Of a stretch of DNA of 28,829 bases, positions 1 to 14,254 are shown one piece after another. Within the stretch, counting starts at the first letter, position 1. Each line of letters opens with the position of its first letter. The stretch spans positions 1-28,829 of the IMG/VR virus record IMGVR_UViG_3300044878_000053; one strand, 5' to 3'. The stretch comes from a virus. Taxonomy: Duplodnaviria > Caudoviricetes. The position numbers and the translations under genes were made by a program. The notes under the pieces were generated by a model. It saw only the letters and a program-made list of their open reading frames with translations, searched no databases and was not told the DNA's origin.

Positions 1-514
1 CTACGTGGAAACAGTGAACGTTGTAATCACCAAGCAGAACATCCAGCTTTTCCTCGACGACAACGAGGGGAAAGAGTTCGAATGGCTGTGCCGCAATTTC
101 GATGTGTATTTTGACCATTACATACCAAGCGAAAGATATGAAGAGCACCAACCTACTGAGTCGCAGATCCGTCAGCTCTATTTGAAGCTGGCTGAGAAGT
201 ATCCAAACTCGTATCCGATCAAAGCGTGGAAAGAACAACGCTTTAATGATACCACCTGTCGTTCCACCAAGATCATCAACAAAGATGGTGTGGTGACTAC
301 GTGCTGGTCGGAAGCGGGCAAAGATGCTGTCCTCGACGAAGGTAAAGGGTTGGCTGCTAAACATGCGGCTGAAGAACGATTCATCGAACACTACGGGTGT
401 CTGTCGTGCGAGTATTACCAACGCTGCGGTTTGCGTTGCTTCTTGCATCACAGCTTTATCGAAGGCTCTACTACAGAGTGTGAGATCAAGCTCCTGTTCG
501 ACGAAATCTTGTAG
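1..514 (+). CDS. C-terminal part of a radical SAM/SPASM-like Fe-S protein (5' end outside the window)
   Basis: The ORF is open from the window edge. It has the Cys pattern 'TTCRSTKIINKDGVVTTCW...CLSCEYYQRCGLRC...EC', typical of SPASM/Twitch auxiliary cluster domains, and sits directly upstream of four radical SAM genes. The CX3CX2C motif is not visible because the gene is truncated. Confidence 0.7.
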   Translation, partial: YVETVNVVITKQNIQLFLDDNEGKEFEWLCRNFDVYFDHYIPSERYEEHQPTESQIRQLYLKLAEKYPNSYPIKAWKEQRFNDTTCRSTKIINKDGVVTTCWSEAGKDAVLDEGKGLAAKHAAEERFIEHYGCLSCEYYQRCGLRCFLHHSFIEGSTTECEIKLLFDEIL

Positions 515-517
515 CCC

Positions 518-553
518 AGGGCCGGTGGCTAGAACCACCGGCTTTGTGCCGTC
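518..553 (+). terminator. Hairpin followed by TTTGTGCCGT (variant of the TATGCCG 3'-end motif) inside the radical SAM cluster
   Basis: GCCGGTGG (521-528) pairs with CCACCGGC (535-542), followed by TTTGTGCCGTC and then the SD TAAGGAG of the next gene. Confidence 0.55.
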
Positions 554-568
554 ACTAAGGAGTGAAAT

Positions 569-1657
569 ATGAATCTCATTATTAAGCCTACGGTTAACTG
601 TAACTTCAAGTGCACCTTCTGCTCGAGCACCAAGCTGTCAGAAGAAGCCAAAGACATCGTGGAATTGGTGGACATTGAAAGCTTCCTCCACCGGTTTCCT
701 GAAACCTCAACCATCATCGTGAATGGTGGTGACCCCCTGATGATGCCTCCTCAGTACTACTGGGACATCATTGCTATCCTCGACCGTTTGGGGATGGACA
801 CTACGCTCGCGTTCACTACCAACCTGTGGGCTTTCTATAAGAAGCCTGAGATGTGGACGGATCTGTTTAAGCATGAACGGGTAGGGGTGACGACTTCGTT
901 CCAGTACGGGGACAAACGGCTCAAGGGTGACGGTGAGGTCTTTACTGACCAAGACTTCCTGAAGATCTCTAACCTGTTCCTAGAACGGGTGGGCTATCGT
1001 CCTGACTTCATTGCGGTGATTGACCAAGACAACGTCGACACTGTAATGCGTACCGTGAAGATGGCTCGGTACTTAGGGATTGAAGCCAAGATCAACTACG
1101 TGTCTGCTTCAGGCCCTGAGGTGAACAATCGTGGTGTGGTGATGGGGTCTTACAACAACTTCTACACCCAAGCGGACATGTACGAACAATACTTGGAGAT
1201 CCATGATGCGGGTCTAGGTGAGTTCGAGTACAACACCAAACAGATGGTGCGTCGTCTCAAACACGGTAACACTACCTGTCCTCTGTCGCGTAACTGTGAC
1301 TCCGGTATCCGTGCGTTACAACCCGGCCAGAACTACTACTCGTGCGGTAGCTTTGGTGACGACAATGAACACCCGATTGACTTCCAGCGAGAGATGGCTG
1401 GTGAGTTCTTTACCCCTCTCCAACAAGTTGCTGAACTCGACTCGATGAAACAAGCGTGCTACGAGTGTCCGATGTTCAGTATCTGCAATGGTTGCCGTAA
1501 GACGATCGCTGACACCAAACGTTTCGGTCTGACGGAGTACCACTGTAAGAAGATGAAGTCTCTCGCTCCACGCATCATTGAAGCCAACGGTTTAACAGGG
1601 TTGATCGAGCCAACTCCGTACGTTGATGAATCCGTCCAGATTATTGCAAGAGGTTAA
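569..1657 (+). CDS. Radical SAM/SPASM-domain protein (anaerobic sulfatase maturase/peptide maturase-like), 362 aa
   Basis: N-terminal 'IIKPTVNCNFKCTFC' (CX3CX2C), 'NGGDP' SAM-binding motif, C-terminal 'CPLSRNC...YYSC...CYECPMFSICNGC...C' SPASM Cys pattern, and an AAGGAG SD. Confidence 0.92.
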   Translation: MNLIIKPTVNCNFKCTFCSSTKLSEEAKDIVELVDIESFLHRFPETSTIIVNGGDPLMMPPQYYWDIIAILDRLGMDTTLAFTTNLWAFYKKPEMWTDLFKHERVGVTTSFQYGDKRLKGDGEVFTDQDFLKISNLFLERVGYRPDFIAVIDQDNVDTVMRTVKMARYLGIEAKINYVSASGPEVNNRGVVMGSYNNFYTQADMYEQYLEIHDAGLGEFEYNTKQMVRRLKHGNTTCPLSRNCDSGIRALQPGQNYYSCGSFGDDNEHPIDFQREMAGEFFTPLQQVAELDSMKQACYECPMFSICNGCRKTIADTKRFGLTEYHCKKMKSLAPRIIEANGLTGLIEPTPYVDESVQIIARG

Positions 1658-1658
1658 C

Positions 1659-2039
1659 ATGACTCAAGAAGTAAAAGACAACGTTCACTTGATCCATGGT
1701 TTGATTGACACTCAGACAGGCGCTGATCCCATCTGTGTCTATGTTGACAAAGAAAGTCTGGTCGAGAAACTGGAAGACATCGTTCACAACGTCGTGACTG
1801 TCCGGTACTGGATTAGTAGCGTCCCGTTGAAAACGGTTGAAGAAGCTGATGAACAGACCCTCGAGCAAGTCATGGGTCATTTGGATGCCGAGATCGACCA
1901 TCGGTACTCCGACATCACCGGTTACCTGTGGACCGACGAACACTTCAAGGTAGGTGGTCATGACCTCATCCCAATCTTCGAAGAGGCCGAAGGGAAATAT
2001 CTCTTACTGGAAATCACAGTCCATGAAAAGTCCGATTAA
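1659..2039 (+). CDS. Hypothetical acidic protein, 126 aa (start reassigned to ATG 1659)
   Basis: The ATG lies 1 nt after the upstream TAA, with a GAGG SD. The ORF fills the gap between two radical SAM genes and has no Cys cluster motif. Confidence 0.75.
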   Translation: MTQEVKDNVHLIHGLIDTQTGADPICVYVDKESLVEKLEDIVHNVVTVRYWISSVPLKTVEEADEQTLEQVMGHLDAEIDHRYSDITGYLWTDEHFKVGGHDLIPIFEEAEGKYLLLEITVHEKSD

Positions 2040-2970
2040 CCTCAGCGTTAACCTCACGTACTACTGTAACTTCAAATGTGGGTTCTGCTATTTGACTCCA
2101 GAGCAACTGCGTGACCGTCAACGGTTGCCTCTGGACATCTTGGAACAACGCCTCGATACCATCTTAGAGGAATACGACGTACACCACGTTGACCTCTATG
2201 GTGGTGAAGTTATGGTGCTCCCGAAAGAGTACCTGTTTCAAGTGCGGGACATTCTCCATGCGCGTGGGATTGACGACATAGTCCTTGTGACTAACGGCTC
2301 CATTACCAACGAAGTCACCTCGTGTCTGGACTTCGATTTAACGGTGTCATACGACCTCACAGCGCGTGAAAGAGCAGATTGGGTACTAGGCAACCTCTTT
2401 ATGCTCGATCGTCCTTATACGGTGCTTACGTTAGCTTCTAGAGCGTTCCTCGATACCGTATCGGTGGACGACTACGTGAACGAGATGAATCTGCTCAATC
2501 AGATGAAGTGTGCAGAGATCAAACCGTACTCGAGCAACCAAGCCAACCAGCACAACGTCACTTACAAAGAGTTCGAAGACTTTGTGTGGGCCGTGATCCA
2601 ACACCCTGAACGTAAGTTCTATTTCGAGAACCGTACACAGGTGAAGGAAGCGGTTGAAGGTCTACGCAATGCTTACAGTGATGATCATCTCTACATCACA
2701 CCTGAAGGCAACTTCGCGGTGTTGGAGTTCGATCACAACGATCATGAATTCTTCCTGAAAATGGATGACTTGCATCAATACCGTAACTGGTGTCAGGTGG
2801 AACGATTCCGTGTGGAGGGCAATCTGTTCTGCGGTACTTGCCCTTACAAAGGGAATTGCCTGTCAGAACACTTACGCGACGTGAAGTCCTTGGACAATTC
2901 CTGCAACGGATTCCGAGGGCTCTTAGACAGGTGGGCTGAACATGCAAGTACAACACCGTCAGAGGCTTGA
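2023..2970 (+). CDS. Radical SAM protein with C-terminal Cys-rich auxiliary cluster, 315 aa (start reassigned to ATG 2023)
   Basis: 'NLSVNLTYYCNFKCGFCYL' (CX3CX2C), 'LYGGE', 'VTNGS', and C-terminal 'CGTCPYKGNCLSEH...SC'. Confidence 0.9.
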   Translation: MKSPINLSVNLTYYCNFKCGFCYLTPEQLRDRQRLPLDILEQRLDTILEEYDVHHVDLYGGEVMVLPKEYLFQVRDILHARGIDDIVLVTNGSITNEVTSCLDFDLTVSYDLTARERADWVLGNLFMLDRPYTVLTLASRAFLDTVSVDDYVNEMNLLNQMKCAEIKPYSSNQANQHNVTYKEFEDFVWAVIQHPERKFYFENRTQVKEAVEGLRNAYSDDHLYITPEGNFAVLEFDHNDHEFFLKMDDLHQYRNWCQVERFRVEGNLFCGTCPYKGNCLSEHLRDVKSLDNSCNGFRGLLDRWAEHASTTPSEA

Positions 2971-3946
2971 GATCACCCTAGACCTGTTCCGAGGTTGTGG
3001 GCATCACTGTGCTGGCTGTATGATCGACAAGAGTCTAGGAGGGGACGTTAACGACCTTCCTGACTTGTACGCGTTGATCCGTGAGATGACTGCTGTGGGT
3101 TACGTAGCGTTCGATTTAGGGGTTGGACCTACTGACTACATGACTGCGACTAACACGCAGGAAGTGATGAACCACACGACCTTCCAGCAGATGGCTCAGT
3201 TGTTTCATCAAGTTACATTCAACGCTGCGTTCCTCGATACCAACCTCGACAACTACACAGCGATGTGTGAGGACATTGATGACGCAGTACCCGGCAAACC
3301 AATTCGCTTTCTGATCCCAGCCGTCCCTTCCCATTTCAAGAATGAGAAGTTCGGGTTGATGATCAAAGAGAAGTTGGAGCACATCAAAAAGACTCTAGAC
3401 CTTGCCTACTTAAACGAAGCAGGGTTTGTGGTCAACTGTACACAGGACACCATCGACGACAAGTTCGAGGAGCATTTACGTAATGGGTTTGATATTGAAT
3501 TCGTGGTGGACAAAGACGACATCCTCACCATCCCTTACGGAAGAGCACCCAACAAAGACCTCATGGTGGCGCAGAATGTTCGACGAGTCTCTCATCGAAT
3601 CAGTTCGTTTTATGCGGAGCTAAATGGTGAAGACGAAAGACGCCGTAACCCTGACCTTCACTACGACACTGGGACCATGGTCAACCTCCTTTATACAGGC
3701 GGTAAGCTCTACTGGGTTCCTTTCCTCAAAGACGACTGTCCGTTTCTGGACGACGAGTTTGTAATCGAGCGCCCCTGGTCTATGGCGAATCTGTTAGCGG
3801 CTCGTGAGCGCGCTCGTACGGCCTCCCTGGACTATCTAGCTGACACTCCTTGTATGGAATGTCCCCACCTCGGTAGTTGTCTCGAGAAAGGGATCACCAG
3901 CATCATGAAGAAGCTCTCGATCAAAGATTGTCTAGTGGGGTTGTGA
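2942..3946 (+). CDS. Divergent radical SAM-like Fe-S protein, 334 aa
   Basis: 'LDLFRGCGHHCAGC' (CX3CX2C), 'GPTD' at the usual GGE position, and C-terminal 'CMECPHLGSC...C'. Confidence 0.75.
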   Translation: MQVQHRQRLEITLDLFRGCGHHCAGCMIDKSLGGDVNDLPDLYALIREMTAVGYVAFDLGVGPTDYMTATNTQEVMNHTTFQQMAQLFHQVTFNAAFLDTNLDNYTAMCEDIDDAVPGKPIRFLIPAVPSHFKNEKFGLMIKEKLEHIKKTLDLAYLNEAGFVVNCTQDTIDDKFEEHLRNGFDIEFVVDKDDILTIPYGRAPNKDLMVAQNVRRVSHRISSFYAELNGEDERRRNPDLHYDTGTMVNLLYTGGKLYWVPFLKDDCPFLDDEFVIERPWSMANLLAARERARTASLDYLADTPCMECPHLGSCLEKGITSIMKKLSIKDCLVGL

Positions 3947-3947
3947 C

Positions 3948-4994
3948 ATGTTCTCCAAACGCATTTCGCAATCTTTCAACCTGTCGTTAGAAATACTGGT
4001 CGGGTGCAAGTTCTCTTGCCCCGGCTGTACGGTGGACAAAAACTATGCTCCCCTCGTTTTACCTGAGGAAGACACGCAAGCGTTACTTAGCCTCGTTGAC
4101 TCCCTCCAAAAGGAAGACTTTCGGCTTCTTGAGTTTAAGGTTGGTCCTACCGATCTTGTTAGTTCTGACAATGGGCACGCTGCTCTTACTCACCCCTTGG
4201 TTGTGGGGATGTCACAGTACTACAAAGCTCTTAACATCAACCTCGCATTGCTCCACACTGACGGCCTGGTGGAGTTGGCTGAACTTCTAGACAACCTGAT
4301 GCCGGGTAAGAAGTTGAGTGTGACCATTCCTTTAACGCTGGGGAATATCACCAAGCCTAAGTACATGGCGCTGCTCAAAGAACACGTCACCTACTTCAAG
4401 AGTCTGTTGAAACGTGTGGACTTCAATCGAGTCTACGCCAACTTCAACATCATTGAAGAGAACCTCAAAGACCTGACCATCGCTCAGTATGAAGCTGCGC
4501 ATGAAATGGACTTAGGGGACGTGGGGATTGTGGTGGAGTTTCCATTCGCCCACTCTCGTTTAGGGTTCGACAATCTGTTGGTTCAGGATCAATTCCGTCG
4601 TGATCTGTTCCAGTACACCGAGTTCGCCAAAGCTCGTGTAAACACGCGTTCCTTCCGACCCTTACAACCGGCCATCCTAGAAGGTTTCGAGTTCACCTAC
4701 CGCGCTGGAAAGCTTTACAGTACCCCTGTGCTGGTGGAGAACCTACCGATCTTCGACCCAGCGTTTGAATTACCTAAACCATGGACTACGGAGTCCGTAT
4801 TAACGTACAAAGAACACAGATACTACGACAACCTTGTCGAGTTTGCAGACCATCCATCATGCGGCGATTGCTGCTTCTTGGATCACTGTGCTCGTGGTGA
4901 CGTACACCGGGTGATGAAACTGGTGGGACGTGACGATTGCTTGACAGGGACTAAAAACCGTTGGGATCTGATTCTCGTAGAGGAAGGGATGTAA
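3948..4994 (+). CDS. Divergent radical SAM-like Fe-S protein, 348 aa, paralog of 2942-3946
   Basis: 'LEILVGCKFSCPGC' (CX3CX2C), 'VGPTD', 'YRAGKLY...PW' shared with the upstream paralog (YTGGKLY...PW), and C-terminal 'CGDCCFLDHC...C'. Confidence 0.75.
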   Translation: MFSKRISQSFNLSLEILVGCKFSCPGCTVDKNYAPLVLPEEDTQALLSLVDSLQKEDFRLLEFKVGPTDLVSSDNGHAALTHPLVVGMSQYYKALNINLALLHTDGLVELAELLDNLMPGKKLSVTIPLTLGNITKPKYMALLKEHVTYFKSLLKRVDFNRVYANFNIIEENLKDLTIAQYEAAHEMDLGDVGIVVEFPFAHSRLGFDNLLVQDQFRRDLFQYTEFAKARVNTRSFRPLQPAILEGFEFTYRAGKLYSTPVLVENLPIFDPAFELPKPWTTESVLTYKEHRYYDNLVEFADHPSCGDCCFLDHCARGDVHRVMKLVGRDDCLTGTKNRWDLILVEEGM

Positions 4995-5425
4995 TGTCTG
5001 ACCTGCCACACAAGCAATACCAAGAGTTGTACCAGATGGTTGTACAAGACCATCCTGACGATTTTGCCAAGATGGAAATCGTGTTGGACGAAGAGCTACT
5101 GGAGAATGCTAAGCACTACTTCCGTGAAGCTTCGTTCCCACTGATCTATCCAGCGAAGTCGATGGCTGTGGCTGTGATCTACGCTTTGCTGCTGGAAGAA
5201 ACCTACGCAATCAATCCGTTTGATTCGTTGCGTGACCCGGAGCTGTTCTTAGGGCAGGACGAATACTTCCAGACCTACGACAACCATCCCCTGATCTACG
5301 ACCAGTTGCTCGAGTGGGTGTTGAGTCACGACAACTGGAAAGAGATGGGCTGGGCACCGAAGACCGTGGAGTACTTCCGTTTGGAATGTACTGAAGAAGG
5401 CATCCGTGAAACCTTAGGGGGTTAG
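4994..5425 (+). CDS. Hypothetical acidic helical protein in the radical SAM operon, 143 aa (start reassigned to ATG 4994)
   Basis: TAATG stop/start overlap with the upstream gene and an upstream GAGGAAGG SD. No recognisable family. Confidence 0.75.
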   Translation: MSDLPHKQYQELYQMVVQDHPDDFAKMEIVLDEELLENAKHYFREASFPLIYPAKSMAVAVIYALLLEETYAINPFDSLRDPELFLGQDEYFQTYDNHPLIYDQLLEWVLSHDNWKEMGWAPKTVEYFRLECTEEGIRETLGG

Positions 5426-5427
5426 TT

Positions 5428-5985
5428 ATGAGAATCATTGAACCATGGCGTACACCGATTGGTCACATCAACCTCGGTCACTGTCTGGACATGGAAGCTC
5501 TCAGAAATGAGATCGGCACTCTAGCGATGATGGCTCAGGAAGACGGGGATCAGCGATTCGTCAATGACTACTCCACCTTCCCGAACATCGTGCATCTGCG
5601 CAAGGACATCATTGACCACGAGGTCAAGGACTTCGTCTTTAAGCAGTGGGATTACCTCATGGGTAGTTTCCGTGTAGAGACCAACGCTAAGTGGTTCCGT
5701 GAAGGTGAAGGCCTGTTCCCTCACTACCACCCCGGTTCTCAAGTGTCGGCCATCTTCTATCCTGAGACGTCTCCTTCAGGCTTGGCGATGTTTGACCCAC
5801 GGGGCAATGCGTGTCGTGGTTATCCCAAACCGATCCGTAACAAGTTCCTCGGTACACACCTGATCTCTCCAGAAGCAGGTGACCTCTGGATCTTCCCTTC
5901 CTTCGTACAACACAGTGTAGCCCACGTCAAAGAGGACACTCGGCTTTCTATGTTGTGTGAATACTACTTCTCTGACGAGCGCTAA
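5428..5985 (+). CDS. Putative 2OG-Fe(II) oxygenase (TIGR02466-like, HxH type), 185 aa
   Basis: 'LFPHYHPGSQVSAIFYP...FDPRG...PEAGDLWIFPSFVQHSV...RLSM' is the double-stranded beta-helix pattern with HxH...H...R. Confidence 0.85.
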   Translation: MRIIEPWRTPIGHINLGHCLDMEALRNEIGTLAMMAQEDGDQRFVNDYSTFPNIVHLRKDIIDHEVKDFVFKQWDYLMGSFRVETNAKWFREGEGLFPHYHPGSQVSAIFYPETSPSGLAMFDPRGNACRGYPKPIRNKFLGTHLISPEAGDLWIFPSFVQHSVAHVKEDTRLSMLCEYYFSDER

Positions 5986-5987
5986 TT

Positions 5988-6542
5988 ATGGAACTGATTC
6001 AACCTTGGAACACGACTATCTTCAAAGGTAACGTGTCCCACATGTGTAACGTGGATGCTATCGCTGCTGAGATCCTGACGCTCCACAGCTTGTCTCCTCA
6101 GGAGTCCACCACTCCGTATAAAGTCACCGCCGAAGAGTTCCCAGCTCTGTGCGACTTCCGTGATCGTGTAGTTACCAATCTGGTGAAGGAGTTCGTCAAA
6201 CAAACGATGGACTTCGACCTGACTCAATTCACTGTCGACACGTTCGGCAAGTGGTTTGCTAAAGGCGAAGACCTGGCTCCTCACGTCCACGGTAGCACTG
6301 GCTTTACCACGATCTTCTACCCTGACGATTACGAATCAGGCATGATGATCTTCGACCCACGCGGTAACGCTTCCCGTGGTTATCCACGAGCGATCCGTGA
6401 TGGTCACTTCGCTCCCTACTCGGTGTTCCCGAAGAAGGGTGATCTCTATATCTTGCCGTCGTTCCTGCAACATTATGTACCGACAGTCAAGGATGACCTG
6501 CGGCTGTCGTTGATTAACGATTACATGTTCTCAGGGGTTTGA
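5988..6542 (+). CDS. Putative 2OG-Fe(II) oxygenase (TIGR02466-like), 184 aa, paralog of the upstream gene
   Basis: 'LAPHVHGSTGFTTIFYP...FDPRGNASRGYP...PKKGDLYILPSFLQHYV...RLSL'. Confidence 0.85.
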   Translation: MELIQPWNTTIFKGNVSHMCNVDAIAAEILTLHSLSPQESTTPYKVTAEEFPALCDFRDRVVTNLVKEFVKQTMDFDLTQFTVDTFGKWFAKGEDLAPHVHGSTGFTTIFYPDDYESGMMIFDPRGNASRGYPRAIRDGHFAPYSVFPKKGDLYILPSFLQHYVPTVKDDLRLSLINDYMFSGV

Positions 6543-6543
6543 T

Positions 6544-7221
6544 ATGTTCGCTGTGCAAAACAAAGGCGAGATCAAGAAGAAGCAACAGGAGTTAAAAGAC
6601 CGAGGCTTCTACACTGGTAAAGTCGATGGTATCTGGGGTCCTTTGTCTGAGGCTGCGATGGTTGCGGCTCGAGGAGAGAAAGTGGTGACTCCACCGTTTG
6701 ACACTACTCGGATTATCTGGGCCAAGAAGGTTGATCGTGCTTTCATCATTCGTGTGCGTGACATCGCTGTAGCTCTTGAGATGCCCACAGAGGGCGCTAA
6801 CTGGCTGATGGCGTGTATGGCATTCGAGACGGGTGAAACCTTCTCACCGACGATCAAGAACGGCGCTGGTGCTCCTTACTACGGTCTGATCCAGTTCGGC
6901 GATGCTGCGGCTAAAGATGCTGGCACTACGGTCGAGGCTCTGCTGAAGATGACTGCTCTGGAACAACTGGAGTACGTCTACAACTTCTTCAAACCGTACA
7001 AAGGTAAGCTGAAGACTCTGTCCGATTGCTACATGAGAATTCTCTATCCGGTCGCAGTAGGTAAAGCGGAAGACTATGTACTCTTTGATACCGTCAAGAA
7101 ACCTACGGCTTACTTCCAAAACCGTGGTTTGGATTTGAATAAAGACGGGTTTATCACGAAGGGCGAATGTGCGGCTAAGGTGCAACAGAAGTTCGAGCGT
7201 GGTGCACAGTTCATTCTGTGA
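6544..7221 (+). CDS. Modular endolysin: N-terminal peptidoglycan-binding domain plus lysozyme-like/lytic transglycosylase domain, 225 aa
   Basis: 'QQELKDRGFYTGKVDGIWGPLSEAA' is the PG-binding D-G-x-x-G-P signature. 'WLMACMAFETGETFSP...YYGLIQF' gives the catalytic Glu and GLxQ motif. C-terminal 'NRGLDLNKDGFITKGE'. Confidence 0.88.
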   Translation: MFAVQNKGEIKKKQQELKDRGFYTGKVDGIWGPLSEAAMVAARGEKVVTPPFDTTRIIWAKKVDRAFIIRVRDIAVALEMPTEGANWLMACMAFETGETFSPTIKNGAGAPYYGLIQFGDAAAKDAGTTVEALLKMTALEQLEYVYNFFKPYKGKLKTLSDCYMRILYPVAVGKAEDYVLFDTVKKPTAYFQNRGLDLNKDGFITKGECAAKVQQKFERGAQFIL

Positions 7222-7262
7222 CGGCATAGAGGGAGGCCCAAAAGGCCTCCCTCGTTATGCCC
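7221..7262. terminator. Bidirectional hairpin flanked on both strands by TATGCC(G/C), between convergent genes
   Basis: Perfect 10 bp stem GAGGGAGGCC (7229-7238) / GGCCTCCCTC (7244-7253), with ACGGCATA on the left and GTTATGCCC on the right. No U-tract on either strand. Confidence 0.75.
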
Positions 7263-7664
7263 CTACATTCCTAAAAGAACTTGGATCAATTCCTTGCCAA
7301 CTTCAAATACGGATGCAAGTGTTTCTTTGTCCCAAGCTGCGCCATTCGGGTCGTAGGATGCGTAACACCCAATCACCACCATGGCCAACGCCACGATCAC
7401 CGAACCGGCTTTCATAACGTTCACCCCACGGGATGAGCTTGAGTCCACGCCTTCCAAGTTACCGATGTCCATAGTCAGAATAGCGATTTGGGTTTTATCC
7501 TCCATCGCTACGATCTTTTCCATGACAGCAGAACCTGAGTCGGTTAAGGCTACTTGTTTATCTTCAGGCAGGTGAAAGTTACAGATCTTTGCAACCATCT
7601 CTCCCCACGGAAAGGTACCAATGGTTTGGCTACCGATGGTACCCAGAGCACCTCCGATGTTCAT
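7263..7664 (-). CDS. Putative membrane protein, 133 aa (holin-like candidate)
   Basis: Hydrophobic segment 'AGSVIVALAMVVIGCYASY', an amphipathic C-terminal helix and a Gly-rich N-terminus. Adjacent to the endolysin. The function is inferred only. Confidence 0.55.
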   Translation of the reverse strand: MNIGGALGTIGSQTIGTFPWGEMVAKICNFHLPEDKQVALTDSGSAVMEKIVAMEDKTQIAILTMDIGNLEGVDSSSSRGVNVMKAGSVIVALAMVVIGCYASYDPNGAAWDKETLASVFEVGKELIQVLLGM

Positions 7665-7669
7665 ATGGT

Positions 7670-7894
7670 CTACACCTTGTTGTGGTCTGAAGTAGTCTCC
7701 TTATCGATCTTGGATTGTTCCTTCAAGTCCTTGACCTCACTCTCCAACCGCTCCCGATCTGCCTTAACCCCATCGACCTGTTTCTCGGCCTCTTTGATAG
7801 CTAAGGTTGTATGGTCCATGTACGCGTATACCCCTCCCAGTACAGAACCGATCAGCAGCAAGTGGAGAATGCTCTTTTTGATTCCCACAACCAT
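7670..7894 (-). CDS. Small N-terminally anchored coiled-coil membrane protein, about 74 aa (i-spanin-like topology)
   Basis: 'KKSILHLLLIGSVLGGVYAY' TM segment followed by the heptad-like 'IKEAEKQVDGVKADRERLESEVKDLKEQ'. ATG 7894 follows the RuvC stop. Confidence 0.6.
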   Translation of the reverse strand: MVVGIKKSILHLLLIGSVLGGVYAYMDHTTLAIKEAEKQVDGVKADRERLESEVKDLKEQSKIDKETTSDHNKV

Positions 7895-7896
7895 TA

Positions 7897-8481
7897 TCAC
7901 CACCCCCTAACGAAGTTGATCAACGTCAGACACTTGTAGTACCCCACGGCAATTGCGTCAGTGGAGTGTTCGTCTAACAGTTCGATCCGTTTCCCTGATT
8001 CGTTCCGGTAGTTCTTCAGACGCAGGATGCCTTGCAGGACTTCTTCCTTCTTCTTACTTTTACCGGGTGCCCCAACAGCAATCTTTGCTGATGGTGGATC
8101 AACTGTTTCGAGAGGCATGGTGACATCGTATTGATACAGTGCTCGACGGATAGCCGTCTTACATTCCACCAATGCTTCGAATGCTTGCGGAAATCTTCCC
8201 AAGAACGGTGACTCGCAAATCAGCGCGTTGGGTTGAAAGTATTGCATCCAATGTAACAGTTCGATCTGATGCGAATGCAGCTTAGCCCAGCGGTTCCCGT
8301 GTACTTCAGCCACACCAGGATACTGCCGACTGTTGCGCTCTCCGTGGAGAGTGGTAGCATCTCGCAAGATCACCTCTCCATTGTAGAGGTCTACATCATG
8401 TACAGCAGTACCTAGGGTGTCTGTACCAGGGTCAATAGAACCAACCCTGAAGTACCGACTGTGTTCTGGGATAAACAACAT
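7897..8481 (-). CDS. ruvC: RuvC-like Holliday junction resolvase
   Basis: Catalytic pattern 'VGSIDPGTDTLG' (D), 'LICESPF' (E), 'AKIAVGAPGKSKKKEEV', 'DEHSTDAIAVG' (DxxD-like). Confidence 0.85.
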   Translation of the reverse strand: MLFIPEHSRYFRVGSIDPGTDTLGTAVHDVDLYNGEVILRDATTLHGERNSRQYPGVAEVHGNRWAKLHSHQIELLHWMQYFQPNALICESPFLGRFPQAFEALVECKTAIRRALYQYDVTMPLETVDPPSAKIAVGAPGKSKKKEEVLQGILRLKNYRNESGKRIELLDEHSTDAIAVGYYKCLTLINFVRGW

Positions 8482-8490
8482 AAGCAAGGA

Positions 8491-9357
8491 TCAACCGTTG
8501 TTGGCACTCACGTAGTTGGCGTCAGTCAGCAGAGGCTCAGTCGCACCCAGTTCGATGTCCTGAGTGAAGCCTTTGTTGGTGAAGGCCACGGAGTGGTGAG
8601 TGGTGATGAAGCTAGCGATCTGTGCAGTGATCACTTCCTTCATGTTGAACTGAGTGTTACCTGGACCTTGTACTTGAGCGTTGCGATCCACGCCAGTCAC
8701 CATGCCGATCTCGGAGATCACGGCGTAGGCTTCGTTGTCGTATTTGATACGGCAAGCGTTGATCAGCTCGAGCACGTCTTCAGCACTGAACACGAGGGTC
8801 AGGATCTGAGAGGTCGACAGGTAGTCGCCAGTGGAAGTCAACACGCCTTCGTTCGACATCGCGGGAGGAGTCGGGTTCAGGTTGGCCAGGTTAGGAACGT
8901 AAGGAACCGTTTCCTTCTGGTCACCGTCCACGATGGTGTGGGTAATCTGAGGCTGGGTGTCAGCCATCGAGATACGCTTCAGGTAGTACGCGAAGTAGTT
9001 CACGCCACCGATGTTTTCCAGACGACGCAGACCGTAACGCGAACGGGCTACAACATCAAGGTCGTTATCAACACGGCGCAGGACAAAAGGCAAGTGTCGA
9101 TACAGAGCAGCATCTGAAGCTCGGTGTGGGAGAGGAGAAGTGTAAGGAACTCCATCGGCACCTACCATGTTCTTGTGGCCACCGTTACCAATGCAGTAGT
9201 AACGCATAGCAGGACGTTCAGCATCACCCAGTTCTTCGTCGGCCAGGATGCCGAACTTCTCGTTCAGGGTGGTGTGTTCGAGGATAGTGGGGAGCTGACC
9301 CAGCAGCAGAGAAGTCTGTAAGGAGGAACCCCAGACACTCCGAGTGATAGTTTTCAT
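8491..9357 (-). CDS. phiKZ-like virion structural (baseplate/tail) protein, gp139-like, 288 aa
   Basis: 'TTLNEKFGI...RYYCIGNGGH...LPFVLRRVDNDL...AYYLKRI...ISEIGMVTGVD' recalled as a conserved phiKZ-like structural family. Syntenic with RuvC. Confidence 0.7.
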   Translation of the reverse strand: MKTITRSVWGSSLQTSLLLGQLPTILEHTTLNEKFGILADEELGDAERPAMRYYCIGNGGHKNMVGADGVPYTSPLPHRASDAALYRHLPFVLRRVDNDLDVVARSRYGLRRLENIGGVNYFAYYLKRISMADTQPQITHTIVDGDQKETVPYVPNLANLNPTPPAMSNEGVLTSTGDYLSTSQILTLVFSAEDVLELINACRIKYDNEAYAVISEIGMVTGVDRNAQVQGPGNTQFNMKEVITAQIASFITTHHSVAFTNKGFTQDIELGATEPLLTDANYVSANNG

Positions 9358-9436
9358 AAAAGAACCTTTTCAACGAGAGGTTACAAGCCGACCTAGGTCA
9401 ACTAAATTAAGCCAGTACACAGTATATCTCTACGGA

Positions 9437-9465
9437 ACGGCATAAAGGAGAGCCGAAGCCCTCCT
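9437..9465 (-). terminator. UUCG hairpin followed by TTATGCCGT
   Basis: Minus strand reads AGGAGGGC-TTCG-GCTCTCCT-TTATGCCGT, just after the stop at 9472. Confidence 0.75.
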
Positions 9466-9471
9466 CTACGT

Positions 9472-10044
9472 TTAAGCATCCAGCAGAGACACGTTGCCAA
9501 GGTCACGAGTACCCGACAGGAACGCCAATTCACCACCGTTTGGATCAACCACTCGAACGAATACCGAACCACCGTTAGACGACTTCGGTAAGAAGCGTGG
9601 AGACTTGTCAGCTATCTTGAACTCCACCACACCACCAACAGCCATGGCTTCACTGATCATCGTCAGGTCAGTCATCGGGGTAGTCGTGTTAGGGATCAGA
9701 GTGTCCTGTGGCTCCAACACCAAACCGTACGCACCCTTAAGGTTAGCCGCCATGGTAGAGAAGCTGAACGGGAACATCGCTGTGAAGGTAAACTCCACGT
9801 AACCATTCAACAGGGTAGTCACGTTAGCCCGCTTGTAGGTCAACGGTACGACACCCTTGTAACGACCCGGTACGCCTGACAGCGCTGTGGTACGAGCCGT
9901 CATCGTGCACGTCACCGACTGACCTTGGTTGGTATAGCTCAGATCCAAGTGATCGGTTTCGAGGTAGTGGTCGTTGTAGTCTTGGAACAGTTTTACCAGC
10001 ACTTCATTGCCGGTGCTTTTCAATACTTCACTGAGTTCTAGCAT
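9472..10044 (-). CDS. Putative virion tail/baseplate protein (phiKZ gp130/gp131-family N-terminal domain), about 190 aa
   Basis: 'YKGVVPLTYKRANV...YGLVLEPQD...SPRF' resembles the N-terminal domain of the neighbouring 10044-11294 protein ('FSGESLFIYNRLDL...YGYVFDSDD...SLRW'). TGATG coupling. Confidence 0.6.
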   Translation of the reverse strand: MLELSEVLKSTGNEVLVKLFQDYNDHYLETDHLDLSYTNQGQSVTCTMTARTTALSGVPGRYKGVVPLTYKRANVTTLLNGYVEFTFTAMFPFSFSTMAANLKGAYGLVLEPQDTLIPNTTTPMTDLTMISEAMAVGGVVEFKIADKSPRFLPKSSNGGSVFVRVVDPNGGELAFLSGTRDLGNVSLLDA

Positions 10045-11294
10045 CACAGTTTACTCAAGTTGTAGTGGATCATCAGACTGCCTCGCAAGTTGGTGCAGTA
10101 CTGGTCATTGAGTTCAACCACCCAGATGTACCCCATGAACGGGTTGTAAGCCTGAGGATACTTACGGTTGAAACCGTTGAAGATCACCTTGGCACCGAAC
10201 AGGTTGTTTGGAGACTGTCGGTTCACACATTTCCAACGAGCCTCACCAGTGGCAGACTCTTGGTTGAAGATCGAGTTGAGGAAAGCAACGTTGGCGTTGT
10301 TAACCGTGAACTCAAAGTCCGTGGGGAACGACGTGATCTCCGTAGGGAAGTTGTGGCCATGGGCTTGACCCCAGTTGAGTAACTCAGGCACCCCTTTGTA
10401 CACGATCGGAAACTCAGGGAGGATCACAGGAATCCTCGAACTGTAGTAGATCACCAGATCACCGGCGAGGTCTGTACAGTACGTCGGCGACAGCTCAATC
10501 ACCAACACCTTAGTAGAAGCAGCGTTATAAGGCACCACTCCGTAATCTTCCACCCGTCCGTTGTACTTAACCTTAGCCCCGAACAAGTTACGAGGTCCCG
10601 GCGTAGTCGAGGACTTCCACGGGCCCTGTATGCCCGCTGGGAGGTGTCCGTAGATCGAGTCCAGATACTTGGTCAAGTTCGCCGTGTCCGTCACTGGGCC
10701 TTTACGTACGGTCTTCAGGTAACTACCGTAGAACAGTCCATCAGTGAATGGTTTCACATGCGTTACGAAAGTCCGTCCTTGGTTCTCCACTACATCGAGG
10801 CCACCCAAGTCAGTGATCTTCGCCAACGTAACCAGATCGTCACGAGGTAACAGGTTTACCGCAAACTCACCGACCCAACGTAAAGAACGTGGAGTAGCAC
10901 GCAGCTTGTAGCCGTGAGCATTGGAGACTGTGATGATCTCCTCGTAGAAGTCATCTGAGTCGAATACGTAGCCGTACTCTGCACCCAAGATGTCCACTAA
11001 GTGACTGGTGGTGGTTGGTAGGTCTAACGTCAGGTTAACCTTAACGCCCCCGAAGAAAGTCCCAAGGTCCAACCGGTTGTAAATGAATAGCGACTCCCCC
11101 GAGAAAGGTACGGGTGCAAAAGGGTCAAAGCTCTTGCGTACCTTTAACGTTACCTGAGTCTGTCGTCCCACGAGGGCAGTCACGTCACGGATGTCAATGA
11201 TGTCATCACGCAAGGTTACGCCGTTACGGAAACTGGCAATCTCAAGTAAAGCTTTGGTAGGAGTCAAGTTTAGAAGACCGATAGTGTCAAGCAC
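10044..11294 (-). CDS. Putative virion tail/baseplate protein (phiKZ gp130-like) with a duplicated C-terminal domain
   Basis: 'YNRLDL...SLRWVG' motif typical of phiKZ tail paralog families and two copies of 'W...NLFGAKVxxNG...ELxxxYCTxLxGxLxIxY'. GTG 11294 is better spaced from the AAGGAG SD than 11303. Confidence 0.68.
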   Translation of the reverse strand: MLDTIGLLNLTPTKALLEIASFRNGVTLRDDIIDIRDVTALVGRQTQVTLKVRKSFDPFAPVPFSGESLFIYNRLDLGTFFGGVKVNLTLDLPTTTSHLVDILGAEYGYVFDSDDFYEEIITVSNAHGYKLRATPRSLRWVGEFAVNLLPRDDLVTLAKITDLGGLDVVENQGRTFVTHVKPFTDGLFYGSYLKTVRKGPVTDTANLTKYLDSIYGHLPAGIQGPWKSSTTPGPRNLFGAKVKYNGRVEDYGVVPYNAASTKVLVIELSPTYCTDLAGDLVIYYSSRIPVILPEFPIVYKGVPELLNWGQAHGHNFPTEITSFPTDFEFTVNNANVAFLNSIFNQESATGEARWKCVNRQSPNNLFGAKVIFNGFNRKYPQAYNPFMGYIWVVELNDQYCTNLRGSLMIHYNLSKL

Positions 11295-11310
11295 TGTCCT
11301 CACTCCTTAC

Positions 11311-11360
11311 AGGCAAAAAAGAAAAGGGTCCACACACCCCCGAGAGAATGTGTGGAACCC
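11311..11360 (-). terminator. Rho-independent-type terminator
   Basis: Minus strand reads GGGTTCCACACATTCT-CTCG-GGGGTGTGTGGACCC-TTTTCTTTTTTGCC, directly after the stop at 11370. Confidence 0.75.
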
Positions 11361-11369
11361 ACTAACAAC

Positions 11370-14204
11370 TTAAGACTGACTCAAGGTCAAGCCTGGTAGA
11401 CGAGTGAATACAACCATGTCGGCCAGTTTATTGGAGTAGGTGAGACCATCGAGATCCGAGGCCAGCGCCAACGGAGCAGGTGGAGCACCGTATTCCAAAC
11501 CATCCATCGTAGCGGCTAGAGCAATCTGCTCTTCCTCAAACGGTGTATAGTCAAACCCTTCGAGGTTACTCAGGTTGAGCTTAGTCGGAGGCTCAGGGTA
11601 TTCGAATCCATCCATTACCGTAACGAGGTTCAGTCGCTTAGCATTGGTTGGGTAATCGAACCCAGGCATCTCGTTGATCAACTGCAACACTGGTGTGGTA
11701 TCAGCACCATAGTCGAAGCCAGTCAGCTCAGTCTCTACATCTATCGGGTTCTCTGGGACTGCGTAATCAAAGCCAGTCTGATCCAGTACCAAGTCGATGT
11801 CGAGACCTAAGTCCTCGTAGTCAAAGCCATCCAGATTCGGATCTGTGTCCAGAGGAGGCACAGGAACTGGTCCGTAGTTGAAACCATTCAGGTGCTGAAG
11901 GTTCAGTGCTACGTCGTCAACTGGAGAGTACTCGAAGCCATTGATCTGCAACGTAACCAGCGGTACTTCCAACGTTGGGCGATAGTCGAAACCACCCAAG
12001 GCTGTCAACACAGTGTTGATGTGTTTGTATTCGCCGATGTTGTGCGGAGGATTCTCTGGGTACAGGTATTCAGGCACCGGTGTCTTGTTGATGATGTCAT
12101 CAAGATCCAATACCTTAACTTCCGGCACCGACAGATACACGGTAGGAATAACCATGCGGTGGCTGTAACGAGTGTAGGCATCAGTACCAAAGTCAACTGT
12201 AGGATCGTAGCCGTCGGCGTGTCCTTCAATCGCACTGTTAGTAGCAGTGAACGTCACTTCATCCAGAGTGGTCGAGTCAACGTGCTTGCCAGTACCATCC
12301 ATTCCCTGAACATAAACGTTCGAGGAGTGCAGGTACATTCCACCTTCACCTTTACCAGCCGTGTCACCTTGACGAATCGCTGACCAGTTCAGTGCAATCA
12401 TGTTCGTACCGCGCAGCTCACGGATGAACTGAACAGTGTAACTACTGAGCTGTGTCAACAGACGAATCATTGCCTTCTGGAGTTCGTCCAGAGAGACTGT
12501 GACCTTTAAGCTGGTGCCTGTCGCCAAAGCTAACAGGTTGGTGTAGAGCAACTCGTACTCAGCCTTGGAGAACTCAGAGGTATCGATCTGGTGATCACGC
12601 AACCAAGTGTCGTACGGAATCTTATCCGCAAGGTTGCACTCTTTGTTCATGTACAGGTGGTTAGCCGCAGCTTCAGCCTGACCGCGAGAGACGTGGTGTT
12701 CCTGAGTGGTGTACAGCCAGTTGTGTTCACGCCAAGCTGCGTGGATCGCCACACACTTGTTATAGAACGCATCGACCGAGATCACCGGCTCTAAGACTGG
12801 TTGGTCATGTAACAACGCATCCAGCAGCTTGTCAGAGACTCGTTCTTCTTCAGTAATCTTACGCAGGTCTGCACGTGTGGGGAGCTTACGCTTCCGCACC
12901 ATAACAGCATCCAGATTCGGAACGTACGGCAGGTCTTGACCCAGCGCTTTGTTCAGAGCGTAGATAAACAGAATGAAGGCATCCTTCGCGTTGTACCACA
13001 ACTGATCGCCGGTAAGCGGGTTGTCGAATGCGATGATGGTCTCGTACAAACCTTCCTGAGCAAAGTAGATCCAGTGGTTCAGCAACACGTCAGAGAACGT
13101 CAGTGCGTAATCGTTACTCCGATCCACGACTGAGGACTCGAGGACTTTCGTCTTGAGTCGGTTCTTCGGACTGTTCTTCATCAGGTCAGTAACGCGACGG
13201 ATCTCACGATCAGTTTCGTTGTAGTTTCCTGGTGCCACTTCAGCTTCACGCTGAACGATCCCTTCCACCGTCCAAGTGTCAACTGGGTTACCACTCGCCA
13301 TCCGCGTCAGGTCACGACGCTTAACTTCAATGGTCGGGTACAAGTTGTCGGGCTGGTCACTTACGTTATGATGTAAATTGAACTCTGCCACCGGAAGCTT
13401 GCGCAGAGTCATGACCCGATCGACTAACCAGTCGAACGTTTCCTGTTTACCAGCGTTGCGCTGAATCCACAGAATGTTGCGGTAGAAGAACAACATCTGT
13501 TCTTTGTTCATGTGAGACATGAACTGATCCAGACGTCCGTGGGAAGCGAGGTACTCTCGAATGTGGAAGCTGTGGACTTGTTCAGTCTTACAGTTAGCCA
13601 GTCGAGCGTTCATGATGTCTACTGGAAGTTCCAGTGCTTGCAACAGCAGTTGACCTGCTGGGTACAAGTCATCAACGTTCACGTATTCAGCCACGTCCCA
13701 TCGAGTGCGGCGTGCGTAGATCTTCTCCTGGATTTGGTCAACCAGGTTTGTTTCGTTTTCCTCAATTAAGAATTGATCAATCCAGAGGATCTTCCCGTCA
13801 GGTGCATCAATGGCGGTTTGCAGATCAACTGGATTCAAGATACCTAGGATCAGGTCTTCCTGAGCCGGGAATCGTTTTACCAATTCGTTGTAATAGCGAG
13901 TACCGAATGCGTAGGCACGTCGGGTGTCAGTGTGGATCGCTAACGATTCAATGTCGAAGGAGATCTCTTGACGAGTCTCAATAGACATCACTGTCATCGG
14001 TTTGTCGTACGGGTGGTAACGCCCAGCCAAATTCAGGTAGTACTTCCACGTAGTTGGATCGTCAACGTCGACGTCGAACGGTACCGGACGGACCTCGGAT
14101 AGACCTGTATTTATTGCGTTAGCACTCGCTTCACTCTTGATGACAATCGTTTTCGCCATCGCAAGGACGGAGTCCTCGTAAAGTCTATAGTAAGCGTTGG
14201 ACAC
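11370..14204 (-). CDS. Large virion structural (baseplate) protein, phiKZ gp128-like, with a C-terminal GFDY repeat tail
   Basis: 'DPTTWKYYLNLAGRYH...HSFHIREYLASH...FYRNILWIQRNAGKQETFDWL...TKVLES' recalled as the conserved family divergent from the portal in phiKZ-like phages. Likely GTG start at 14204 with GGAGG 8 nt upstream; the ORF track uses TTG 14219. Confidence 0.75.
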   Translation of the reverse strand: MSNAYYRLYEDSVLAMAKTIVIKSEASANAINTGLSEVRPVPFDVDVDDPTTWKYYLNLAGRYHPYDKPMTVMSIETRQEISFDIESLAIHTDTRRAYAFGTRYYNELVKRFPAQEDLILGILNPVDLQTAIDAPDGKILWIDQFLIEENETNLVDQIQEKIYARRTRWDVAEYVNVDDLYPAGQLLLQALELPVDIMNARLANCKTEQVHSFHIREYLASHGRLDQFMSHMNKEQMLFFYRNILWIQRNAGKQETFDWLVDRVMTLRKLPVAEFNLHHNVSDQPDNLYPTIEVKRRDLTRMASGNPVDTWTVEGIVQREAEVAPGNYNETDREIRRVTDLMKNSPKNRLKTKVLESSVVDRSNDYALTFSDVLLNHWIYFAQEGLYETIIAFDNPLTGDQLWYNAKDAFILFIYALNKALGQDLPYVPNLDAVMVRKRKLPTRADLRKITEEERVSDKLLDALLHDQPVLEPVISVDAFYNKCVAIHAAWREHNWLYTTQEHHVSRGQAEAAANHLYMNKECNLADKIPYDTWLRDHQIDTSEFSKAEYELLYTNLLALATGTSLKVTVSLDELQKAMIRLLTQLSSYTVQFIRELRGTNMIALNWSAIRQGDTAGKGEGGMYLHSSNVYVQGMDGTGKHVDSTTLDEVTFTATNSAIEGHADGYDPTVDFGTDAYTRYSHRMVIPTVYLSVPEVKVLDLDDIINKTPVPEYLYPENPPHNIGEYKHINTVLTALGGFDYRPTLEVPLVTLQINGFEYSPVDDVALNLQHLNGFNYGPVPVPPLDTDPNLDGFDYEDLGLDIDLVLDQTGFDYAVPENPIDVETELTGFDYGADTTPVLQLINEMPGFDYPTNAKRLNLVTVMDGFEYPEPPTKLNLSNLEGFDYTPFEEEQIALAATMDGLEYGAPPAPLALASDLDGLTYSNKLADMVVFTRLPGLTLSQS
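11373..12010 (-). repeat. 12 tandem degenerate peptide repeats of 17-19 aa, consensus (L/M)-x-G-(F/L)-(D/E)-Y
   Basis: GGFDY, NGFEY, NGFNY, DGFDY, TGFDY, TGFDY, PGFDY, DGFEY, EGFDY, DGLEY, DGLTY, PGLTL, with spacings 18,18,19,18,18,19,18,17,19,18,18 aa counted from the translation. Confidence 0.92.
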
Positions 14205-14254
14205 GTCACGGTCCTCCAAATCAACTTTCTTTAATCGTCACTAGGAGTGGTTAT

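Follow-up and report, generated by a model that had tools for sequence, protein, structure and literature searches.

A conserved radical SAM cassette of large phages and a candidate Cys-His substrate tail on a co-encoded virion protein

Maturation of a whole protein by radical SAM (S-adenosylmethionine) enzymes is known from a few cellular cases, i.e., HXS, CrpC/CrpA and QhpD. In the HXS system (HxsA-D), several radical SAM enzymes with small partners mature a whole protein of about 200 aa at His-x-Ser repeats in a basic context, and the SHRSS motif of a 214-aa protein gains +8 Da through two radical SAM enzymes (PMC13128918; this and most of the other papers are cited from the parts of their text that were available). 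CrpC/CrpA of Methanococcus voltae, the PapB ranthipeptides and QhpD represent radical SAM/SPASM systems that form thioethers from repeated Cys residues into a co-encoded protein (PMC13692751). Triceptide enzymes link an aromatic residue i to the C-beta of residue i+2 (His-Ala, Phe-Ser and Trp-Asn are used, and His-to-Tyr is accepted), and ranthipeptide enzymes link Cys to the C-beta of Asp or Asn (PMC11002830). Here, we analyzed a window (the whole 28,829-nt stretch of DNA, positions 1 to 28,829 of the IMG/VR virus record IMGVR_UViG_3300044878_000053, Caudoviricetes), the left end of which carries an operon, g1-g10, rich in genes for radical SAM proteins and 2-oxoglutarate (2OG)-Fe(II) oxygenases. 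A preceding interpretation of the letters alone (the sequence-only reading) had compared this operon to a cluster for RiPPs (peptides that are made by the ribosome and modified after translation) that acts on a protein. This comparison is supported by a Cys/His/Ser-rich gene upstream, by the co-occurrence of the genes as a cassette, and by a homologue of the upstream protein in a virion; we further infer the modification step, in which the radical SAM enzymes and iron oxygenases probably cross-link and hydroxylate a Cys-His tail of the co-encoded, predicted virion protein.

The window contains the right half of a conserved run of 15 genes. The left half is supplied by a metagenome contig, L125, that is 95.4% identical to window positions 1-7352 (7363 columns) and reaches 9.1 kb further left. 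This left part encodes two repeat proteins of 993 and 542 aa, a 168-aa cupin, a 345-aa radical SAM protein (rA), a 184-aa protein (below, the motif protein), the proteins U2 and U3, and a full 336-aa copy of g1. The motif gene is located 2.3 kb left of the window edge, and the C-terminus of its product is (Cys-His-x-Ser/Asn)2-Cys-His-x-x-RGRR, ending TVCHSSCHDNCHCARGRR. Thus, both the continuation of the cluster past the left edge and the Cys/His/Ser-rich, substrate-like gene that the sequence-only reading had expected there are found in L125. A sequencing run that contains 0.99 of the words of the window, and from which the window may originate, yielded contigs over L125 positions 4950-6814, 6807-9082 and 9154-10816 at depths of 6.5-7.8, the last of which begins at the first base of the window; it is likely that the phage of the window has its own motif gene upstream. 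A search of viral contigs with the exact window pattern returned no match. The repeats in the 993-aa and 542-aa proteins, together with the label "virion structural protein" on the RSL2 homologue, suggest that these two proteins are fibre-like; neither has a Pfam match. The cupin matches JmjC_2 (29.1 vs. a cut-off of 22; scores are given in bits) and Cupin_2; we do not claim that it is a His hydroxylase, its PDB matches to the histidyl hydroxylase MINA being not significant (E 0.09).

The association of the enzymes with the motif gene is conserved, as is the clustering of the homologues. Relatives of g2 occur in 15 phage records of GenBank, which belong to DT01, the RSL2/RSF1 group, Atu_ph07 and Phosso; in all four of the records that were opened, the motif gene lies between rA and further enzymes. 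Among 34 loci selected by their enzymes, a CHxxCHxxC gene is present in 28 and a variant in 2, while the remaining 4 have at most 2.1 kb of upstream DNA; i.e., the motif gene or its variant occurs in 30 of the 30 loci with sufficient upstream sequence. The cassette recurs in a second set that was selected by the motif and consists of the best 80 of 142 loci confirmed from 234 pattern matches (17 were contigs already seen, and near-duplicates were kept): the next gene upstream of the motif gene is rA in 78 loci and rB in one, with a contig end in one more, and the next gene downstream is U2 in 76, the rest being mostly contig ends. Using profiles built from the enzyme-selected loci, we counted the following families in 54 loci with long flanks: rA and U2 (54 each), rC, represented by g2 (52), U3 (47), rB and rD, represented by g1 and g4 (46 each), cupin (43), oxygenase (40), U7, represented by g7 (38), rE, represented by g5 and g6 (23), and a B12-dependent radical SAM protein (15). 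The minimal cassette is rA-motif-U2-U3-rC; therefore, g2 is a core enzyme, and g1, g4, g5 and g6 are additions. The cassette spans PhiKZ-like and T4-like phages, and the motif family comprises 797 representatives (50% identity clusters, E <= 0.001). Of the 54 loci, 47 have fibre-like genes ahead of the cassette; the families of these genes vary between phage groups, whereas the tail is constant.

Among 112 representatives of the 282 unassigned genes in or beside the cassettes, the recurring named family was further 2OG oxygenases, and the search gave no family of transporters, peptidases, kinases or Que enzymes at E <= 1e-4; such genes and DNA transferases had been pointed out earlier as absent from the window. 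Single loci contain other genes, i.e., a SufE gene within a cassette (L098:6776-7213) and a tryptophan-halogenase gene upstream of another one (L073:3289-4854). A 4.3-kb contig from a Dysosmobacter assembly (L036) has a g2 relative nearly identical to that of the jumbo-phage contig L008 and is probably phage DNA in a bacterial assembly.

The cassette also resides in chromosomes of Bdellovibrionota. A motif search of species genomes gave 126 matches, 11 of which were confirmed; 6 of these are labelled Bdellovibrionota, and cassette genes adjoin the motif gene in 10. A g2 relative (E <= 1e-60) is present in 19 of 401 sampled Bdellovibrionota genomes. In 18 regions from this group, the motif gene was found in 11, was just outside the region or of a short variant type in 3, and contig ends cut the remaining 4; two copies are on contigs of 2.4 and 2.8 Mb. 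A quick rC tree, with no root test, groups the window with the viral contigs L005 and L014 and places five Bdellovibrionota rows, together with a single viral row, within a branch formed by viral contigs. A PhiKZ capsid search of five bacterial-labelled genomes gave no match, but the controls were likewise blank, and the search was uninformative. At positions 5846-13525, a 208-kb contig labelled Gemella (L039) carries a cassette that is very divergent; it has six CX3CX2C proteins, and its tail ends in CHSSCHSNCHHR. Tandem duplicates of the motif gene occur in L040 (6062-6879), L041 (9195-10030), L166 and L170; in L040 and L041, the duplicates directly follow fibre-like proteins of 2000-2900 aa.

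Motif proteins are mostly 170-230 aa long, and the only invariant positions in an alignment of 21 of them (mean column identity 31%) are the Cys and His residues of the tail. In 321 of 368 distinct motif proteins the tail is canonical, with Cys at every fourth residue, three times, as expected of a donor for a thioether system; one of the tails reads CHSSHSSHSSHSSRGRR. We counted residues over 1150 His units of the 368 proteins. The position His+2 is occupied by Ser (852), Asn (214), Ala (71), Asp (7), Gln (5) or Trp (1) and never by Gly, whereas Gly occurs 252 times at His+1, which is unconstrained. Cys precedes His in 1138 units and is lost in 12, some tails being Cys-free, pure HxS runs; Tyr takes the place of His in 5 proteins and Asn does so in one, and a further Tyr case was found separately. 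With Ser, Asn, Ala, Asp or Gln in 1149 of the 1150 units, the His+2 usage fits the aromatic-x-C-beta rule of triceptides (PMC11002830). Overall, the residue usage is compatible with both triceptide-type and ranthipeptide-type links.

Several unusual tails were recorded. In L008:6503-7186, L012:6012-6716, P0018 and P0024, tails have grown to 7-9 Cys-His units, which are separated by VPV or VV; in L178:4310-4918, L177:9062-9670 and L016:5301-5954, they drift from period-4 CHxS to period-3, HxsA-like HxS. In P0262, an intein-like insert (residues about 173-307; first Cys, last Asn before Cys) divides the Cys-His tail; this insert weakly matches an intein-containing model (E 2e-4) and has no Pfam match. 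The motif family itself has no named model: 8 motif proteins had no NCBIfam match at E up to 10, the L014 motif protein had no Pfam match, U2 and U3 had no NCBIfam match, and a PDB sequence search with the motif alignment found nothing significant (best E 0.23). A tblastn search with only the tail as query gave no match either, probably owing to the low-complexity filter. The ESM Atlas model of the motif protein is poor (predicted template modelling score 0.23; best template modelling score 0.37) and was not used.

The sequence-only reading had counted at least five radical SAM/SPASM proteins in the operon. The CX3CX2C motif is indeed present in g2, g4, g5 and g6, but the first SPASM cysteine group is missing from three of the five, and g5 and g6 are degenerate. 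Searches with PF04055 and TIGR04085, which had been suggested, gave a divided answer: g2 (36.9) and g4 (36.5), and only these two among the operon genes, pass PF04055 (cut-off 29.5), whereas g1 (17.9) and g2 (17.2) fall below the TIGR04085 cut-off of 27 even though both hold the two cysteine groups. The rA protein of L125 passes TIGR04085 (27.7). All operon genes are on the + strand. The gene g1 (rB, positions 2-514, phrog_1802), cut by the contig end, encodes the last 170 aa of a radical SAM/SPASM protein of 336 aa; it is 100% identical over these 170 aa to L125:8657-9667, the full copy of which carries the motif CNLRCSFC and TGGELF with its GGE. The 362-aa g2 product (569-1657) has the full SPASM cysteine set (auxiliary Cys 237/243/259 and 297/300/306/309/326) and, with g1, is the only product of the operon genes with both groups. 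The 315-aa g4 product (rD, 2023-2970; CNFKCGFC, YGGEV) holds the second auxiliary group only (Cys 270/273/279/294), as do g5 (rE1, 2942-3946; 334 aa; CGHHCAGC, GPTD) and its paralogue g6 (rE2, 3948-4994; 348 aa; CKFSCPGC, GPTD; 24% identity). No Pfam or NCBIfam model matched g5 or g6. In their family, three N-terminal and four C-terminal Cys are invariant in 14 of 14 aligned rows, Gly, Asn or a similar residue replaces the aromatic residue before the third Cys, and (G/P)TD replaces GGE. Because g5/g6 homologues match PF04055 weakly (E 2.9e-4 and 5.9e-3), and the ESM Atlas features of g5 are near radical SAM/SPASM clusters (0.93-0.95; 136-158 of 256 shared), we consider g5 and g6 to be degenerate radical-SAM-like proteins. 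The DT01 homologue of g6 carries a radical SAM annotation. An hhalign comparison of rE with rD gave 7.9%, and a PDB sequence search with the rE alignment gave no significant match (best E 0.22).

The best NCBIfam matches of rA and g2 are peptide and protein maturases (PapB, anSME, YhhB, AmcB and DynA). PapB is the top match of rA and of full-length g1 (PapB 48.3 vs. 340), and DynA is that of g2 (40.9 vs. 450). The enzymes resemble triceptide synthases (HaaB, YhhB, ScaB and XncB/AmcB-type) and the dynobactin enzyme DynA, which are SPASM enzymes. Nevertheless, rA stays below the cut-offs of the triceptide maturase models (YhhB 43.6 vs. 445, AmcB 41.1 vs. 425, FxsB 38.5 vs. 370), and the rA and g2 scores against triceptide-type models are below one tenth to one seventh of the cut-offs. 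Triceptide synthases also differ in acting on short exported precursors with a protease and a transporter (PMC11002830), whereas the substrate here would be a structural protein. We rejected membership in HXS: rA scores 25.1 vs. 370 against HxsB (TIGR03978), g2 scores 22.1 vs. 267.9 against HxsC (TIGR03977), and neither HxsA for the 8 motif proteins (E up to 10) nor HxsD for U2 or U3 was among NCBIfam matches. HXS defends bacteria against phages through a periplasmic effector that binds peptidoglycan, and has four genes, two enzymes, and period-3 repeats near the N-terminus (PMC13128918), whereas the present cassette is encoded by phages and predators and has period-4 Cys-His repeats at the C-terminus and up to six enzymes plus oxygenases. 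CrpC/CrpA-type systems differ by a single enzyme with a RiPP recognition element (RRE) domain and by archaeal or bacterial, non-virion substrates (PMC13692751); there is no room for an N-terminal RRE in the cassette enzymes, because they have 315-362 aa with CX3CX2C at the N-terminus. The models TIGR04114-04119, which we take to be the CXXX-repeat radical SAM target system, did not match the motif proteins and are not among the best 25 models for g2, g4 or rA. By analogy, the cassette may work like HXS or CrpC/CrpA maturation, and it is a member of neither.

Evidence for a virion location comes from Atu_ph07. Its motif homologue gp170 (31.9 kDa) was detected in virion proteomics by 8 peptides with 35% coverage and was most abundant in band 1, at the top of the gel; gp164-169, gp171 and gp172 are not listed in the available Table S5, and of the 33 proteins in this list with a mass of 25-37 kDa, 3 have their peak in band 1, namely gp170 and two others that rest on 1-2 peptides (PMC6102473). 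Tryptic mapping does not tell whether the tail peptide is among those detected. The Peptidase_S74 chaperone is a mark of trimeric fibres, and one motif homologue, in a minimal rA-motif-U2-U3-rC locus, is fused to it (44.8 vs. 22); a search for longer fused motif proteins returned 1 protein, which is weak evidence. Genes with this chaperone stand beside the cassette in L042 and, according to a profile, in 7 of the 18 Bdellovibrionota regions, and two motif homologues contain Gly_rich_2. We predict that the motif protein forms a trimer and belongs to the tip of a virion fibre. The sequence-only reading had preferred a phage protein, such as a tail fibre or baseplate component, to DNA as the substrate; gp170 agrees with a virion protein, but the likely substrate is a dedicated small protein and not a long fibre or the baseplate.

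We propose the following mechanism for modification of the tail. Late in infection, the core SPASM enzymes rA and rC (g2), aided by U2 and U3, would abstract a C-beta hydrogen from the small residue at His+2, and this C-beta would then join the His ring (cyclophane) or the Cys sulfur (ranthionine). If the tail is modified, the three-residue cyclophane between the His ring and C-beta is our tentative first choice, because His+2 is never Gly and because of the His-to-Tyr swaps and the Cys-free tails; the link to Cys sulfur may be used instead, although we find it somewhat doubtful. The products of g1, g4 and the degenerate g5/g6 would make further links or be partners and relays for electrons; hydroxylation of the product would fall to the cupin, g8 and g9, and the rigid basic tail would mediate host contact at the fibre tip. 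It is conceivable, short of probable, that a six-enzyme line, common to large phages of unrelated groups and to predatory Bdellovibrionota, stacks up His cyclophanes and thioethers, perhaps from chain to chain, where a trimeric adhesion fibre has its tip, i.e., that RiPP chemistry serves a prey-recognising structure and not a secreted peptide.

Several points weigh against a modified tail. No single contig links the window to its motif gene, and none bridges the 71-base gap at L125 positions 9083-9153. The maturase matches are far below the cut-offs (at most 48 bits vs. 340-650). The residue counts come from related sequences, and the profile and pattern used for selection fix the first unit. 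The virion evidence is from one T4-like phage with a homologue of 296 aa, and the shift of gp170 on the gel could be caused by disulfides or aggregation, because the loading buffer as written contains no reductant and the virions were purified with polyethylene glycol only (PMC6102473). It is not apparent why a 16-residue tail would take six enzymes, and only 23 of 54 loci include rE. Finally, conservation of the Cys/His tail could simply reflect a metal site.

In this last, unlikely case, Cys and His of three chains would stack Fe or Zn on the trimer axis of an unmodified tail, and the Fe-S proteins would load the metal or build and attach a small cofactor. The tips of T4 fibres hold metal-bound His pairs, and such a site would be consistent with the near-constant Cys before His, with the trimer implied by the S74 fusion, with the seven invariant Cys of g5/g6 in the absence of the usual SAM-binding motifs, and with the SufE gene in one cassette. 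However, it leaves unexplained the small C-beta residue at His+2, the His-to-Tyr swaps and the Cys-free HxS tails, and does not account for the SPASM enzyme that adjoins the motif gene in 79 of 80 loci. We consider it improbable that the system is a classical RiPP pathway, in which the tail is modified, cleaved and released as a short bioactive peptide, or that the true substrate is the long fibres or a host protein. The variable N-terminus with an invariant C-terminal core does look like a precursor layout, and tails can reach 7-9 repeats; conversely, a peptidase and a transporter are absent among the 112 representative genes, a hydrophobic N-terminal stretch is present in only 2 of 264 motif proteins, and the 170-300-aa body is itself in the virion. 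Fibre-like genes ahead of most cassettes could point to the long fibres, but the fibre families differ among phage groups, and the tail does not. A pathway to a modified nucleotide, DNA base or cofactor, with the motif gene a bystander in a late operon, is very unlikely and was rejected as the principal explanation: DHFR genes inside the cassette in 3 loci (including RSL2), ThyX genes beside it in 3, the guess of DNA repair or host metabolism in the DT01 paper (PMC8541153), and weak viperin, MoaA and QueE matches speak for it, but viperin (43.9 vs. 180) and QueE (19.3 vs. 260.1) are far below cut-off, no kinase, Que or transferase family recurs, and the link between cassette and motif gene persists across T4-like phages, PhiKZ-like phages and bacterial chromosomes.

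The remaining genes of the operon include both oxygenases. The product of g8 (5428-5985; HYH99, H162, RLS172) passes PF13759 (43.4 vs. 27); with TIGR02466, the model suggested earlier, it matches at 26.4, below the cut-off of 62.5. The product of g9 (5988-6542; HVH99, H162, RLS172; phrog_81, E 6e-13) reaches 24.7 with PF13759, below cut-off, and shares the triad residues of g8. The two HxH oxygenases of the sequence-only reading are both recovered with HxH...H...RxS, g8 by score and g9 by residues. The gene g3 (1659-2039; 126 aa; phrog_20281, unknown) is an accessory gene under purifying selection, its family being present in 3 of 35 sequences and outside the conserved cassette. The 143-aa product of g7 (U7, 4994-5425; YPAKS motif; phrog_20737) is a conserved cassette protein of no named family that also occurs in the Bdellovibrionota copies. 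The last gene, g10 (6544-7221; phrog_4928, phrog_196), encodes a peptidoglycan-binding, lysozyme-like protein (PF01471, E 0.0014, below cut-off); its DT01 homologue is annotated as "putative transglycosylase", and it has the same position in 13 of 35 sequences.

The layout agrees with the earlier account of nine co-oriented genes with tight junctions: g1-g9 extend from <2-514 to 6542, and the junctions are 54, 1, -17, -29, 1, -1, 2 and 2 nt; g10 starts 1 nt after g9 and belongs to the operon as its tenth gene. Chance reading frames were ruled out, because nonsynonymous divergence (dN) is far below synonymous divergence (dS) in all operon genes (dN/dS <= ~0.21, compared to relatives L005 and L014), which is indicative of purifying selection. 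The only real gap of the operon contains a hairpin (514-549, + strand; 12-bp stem followed by UUUGUG; z -4.4, 0 of 200 shuffles), the stem of which is kept with different loops in L005 and L014. It is likely to be a leaky terminator or a processing site, and the enzymes downstream may be expressed less than the substrate. A second strong hairpin, between convergent genes (7223-7261; z -5.9, 0 of 200 shuffles), is the likely terminator of the operon. The jumbo-phage context that had been assumed is confirmed by the PhiKZ major capsid protein (PF25620, 715 bits) and a divergent DnaB (PF20307): the window is a fragment of a PhiKZ-type jumbo phage. Elsewhere in the window, positions 11370-14219 (- strand) encode a 949-aa protein that matches phrog_3222 over residues 7-656 and has about a dozen acidic L-x-G-F-(D/E)-Y repeats at its C-terminus. 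Long frames without stop codons (627-820 codons) run antisense to real genes at 14300-16762 (- strand), 17320-19203 and 22629-24800 (both + strand) and are probably shadows of codon bias.

The cassette is real and conserved, and it is apparently undescribed in print. DT01 and S13 carry cassette enzymes. The DT01 paper reports six radical SAM genes (PMC8541153), the S13 paper lists radical SAM genes as accessory (PMC11898562), the 332-Vera paper describes eight radical SAM genes in a structural cluster as highly unusual (PMC12390700), and the RP12/RP31 paper lists other radical SAM genes; in the available text, the first three name no substrate or Cys-His tail. RP12/RP31 and 332-Vera are jumbo phages with groups of radical SAM genes that were not returned by g2 or rA queries, possibly representing different cassettes. 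The word "radical" is absent from the main text of a jumbo-phage review (PMC7824862), and the available parts of PMC11242549 and PMC12801897 do not describe the cassette. Our literature search, which covered journals other than subscription journals, found cassette genes only in passing mentions and found no radical SAM maturation of a virion protein.

The cassette contributes several new families of enzymes, among them the degenerate g5/g6 type, as well as three proteins that belong to no known family, and the existence of cultured phages that bear it makes the proposed modification directly testable. If the tail is modified, phage particles bear RiPP-type cross-links that standard proteomics overlooks, and fibres produced in heterologous hosts would be incomplete. 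Furthermore, host recognition may then hinge on anaerobic Fe-S chemistry and on the iron supply of the host.

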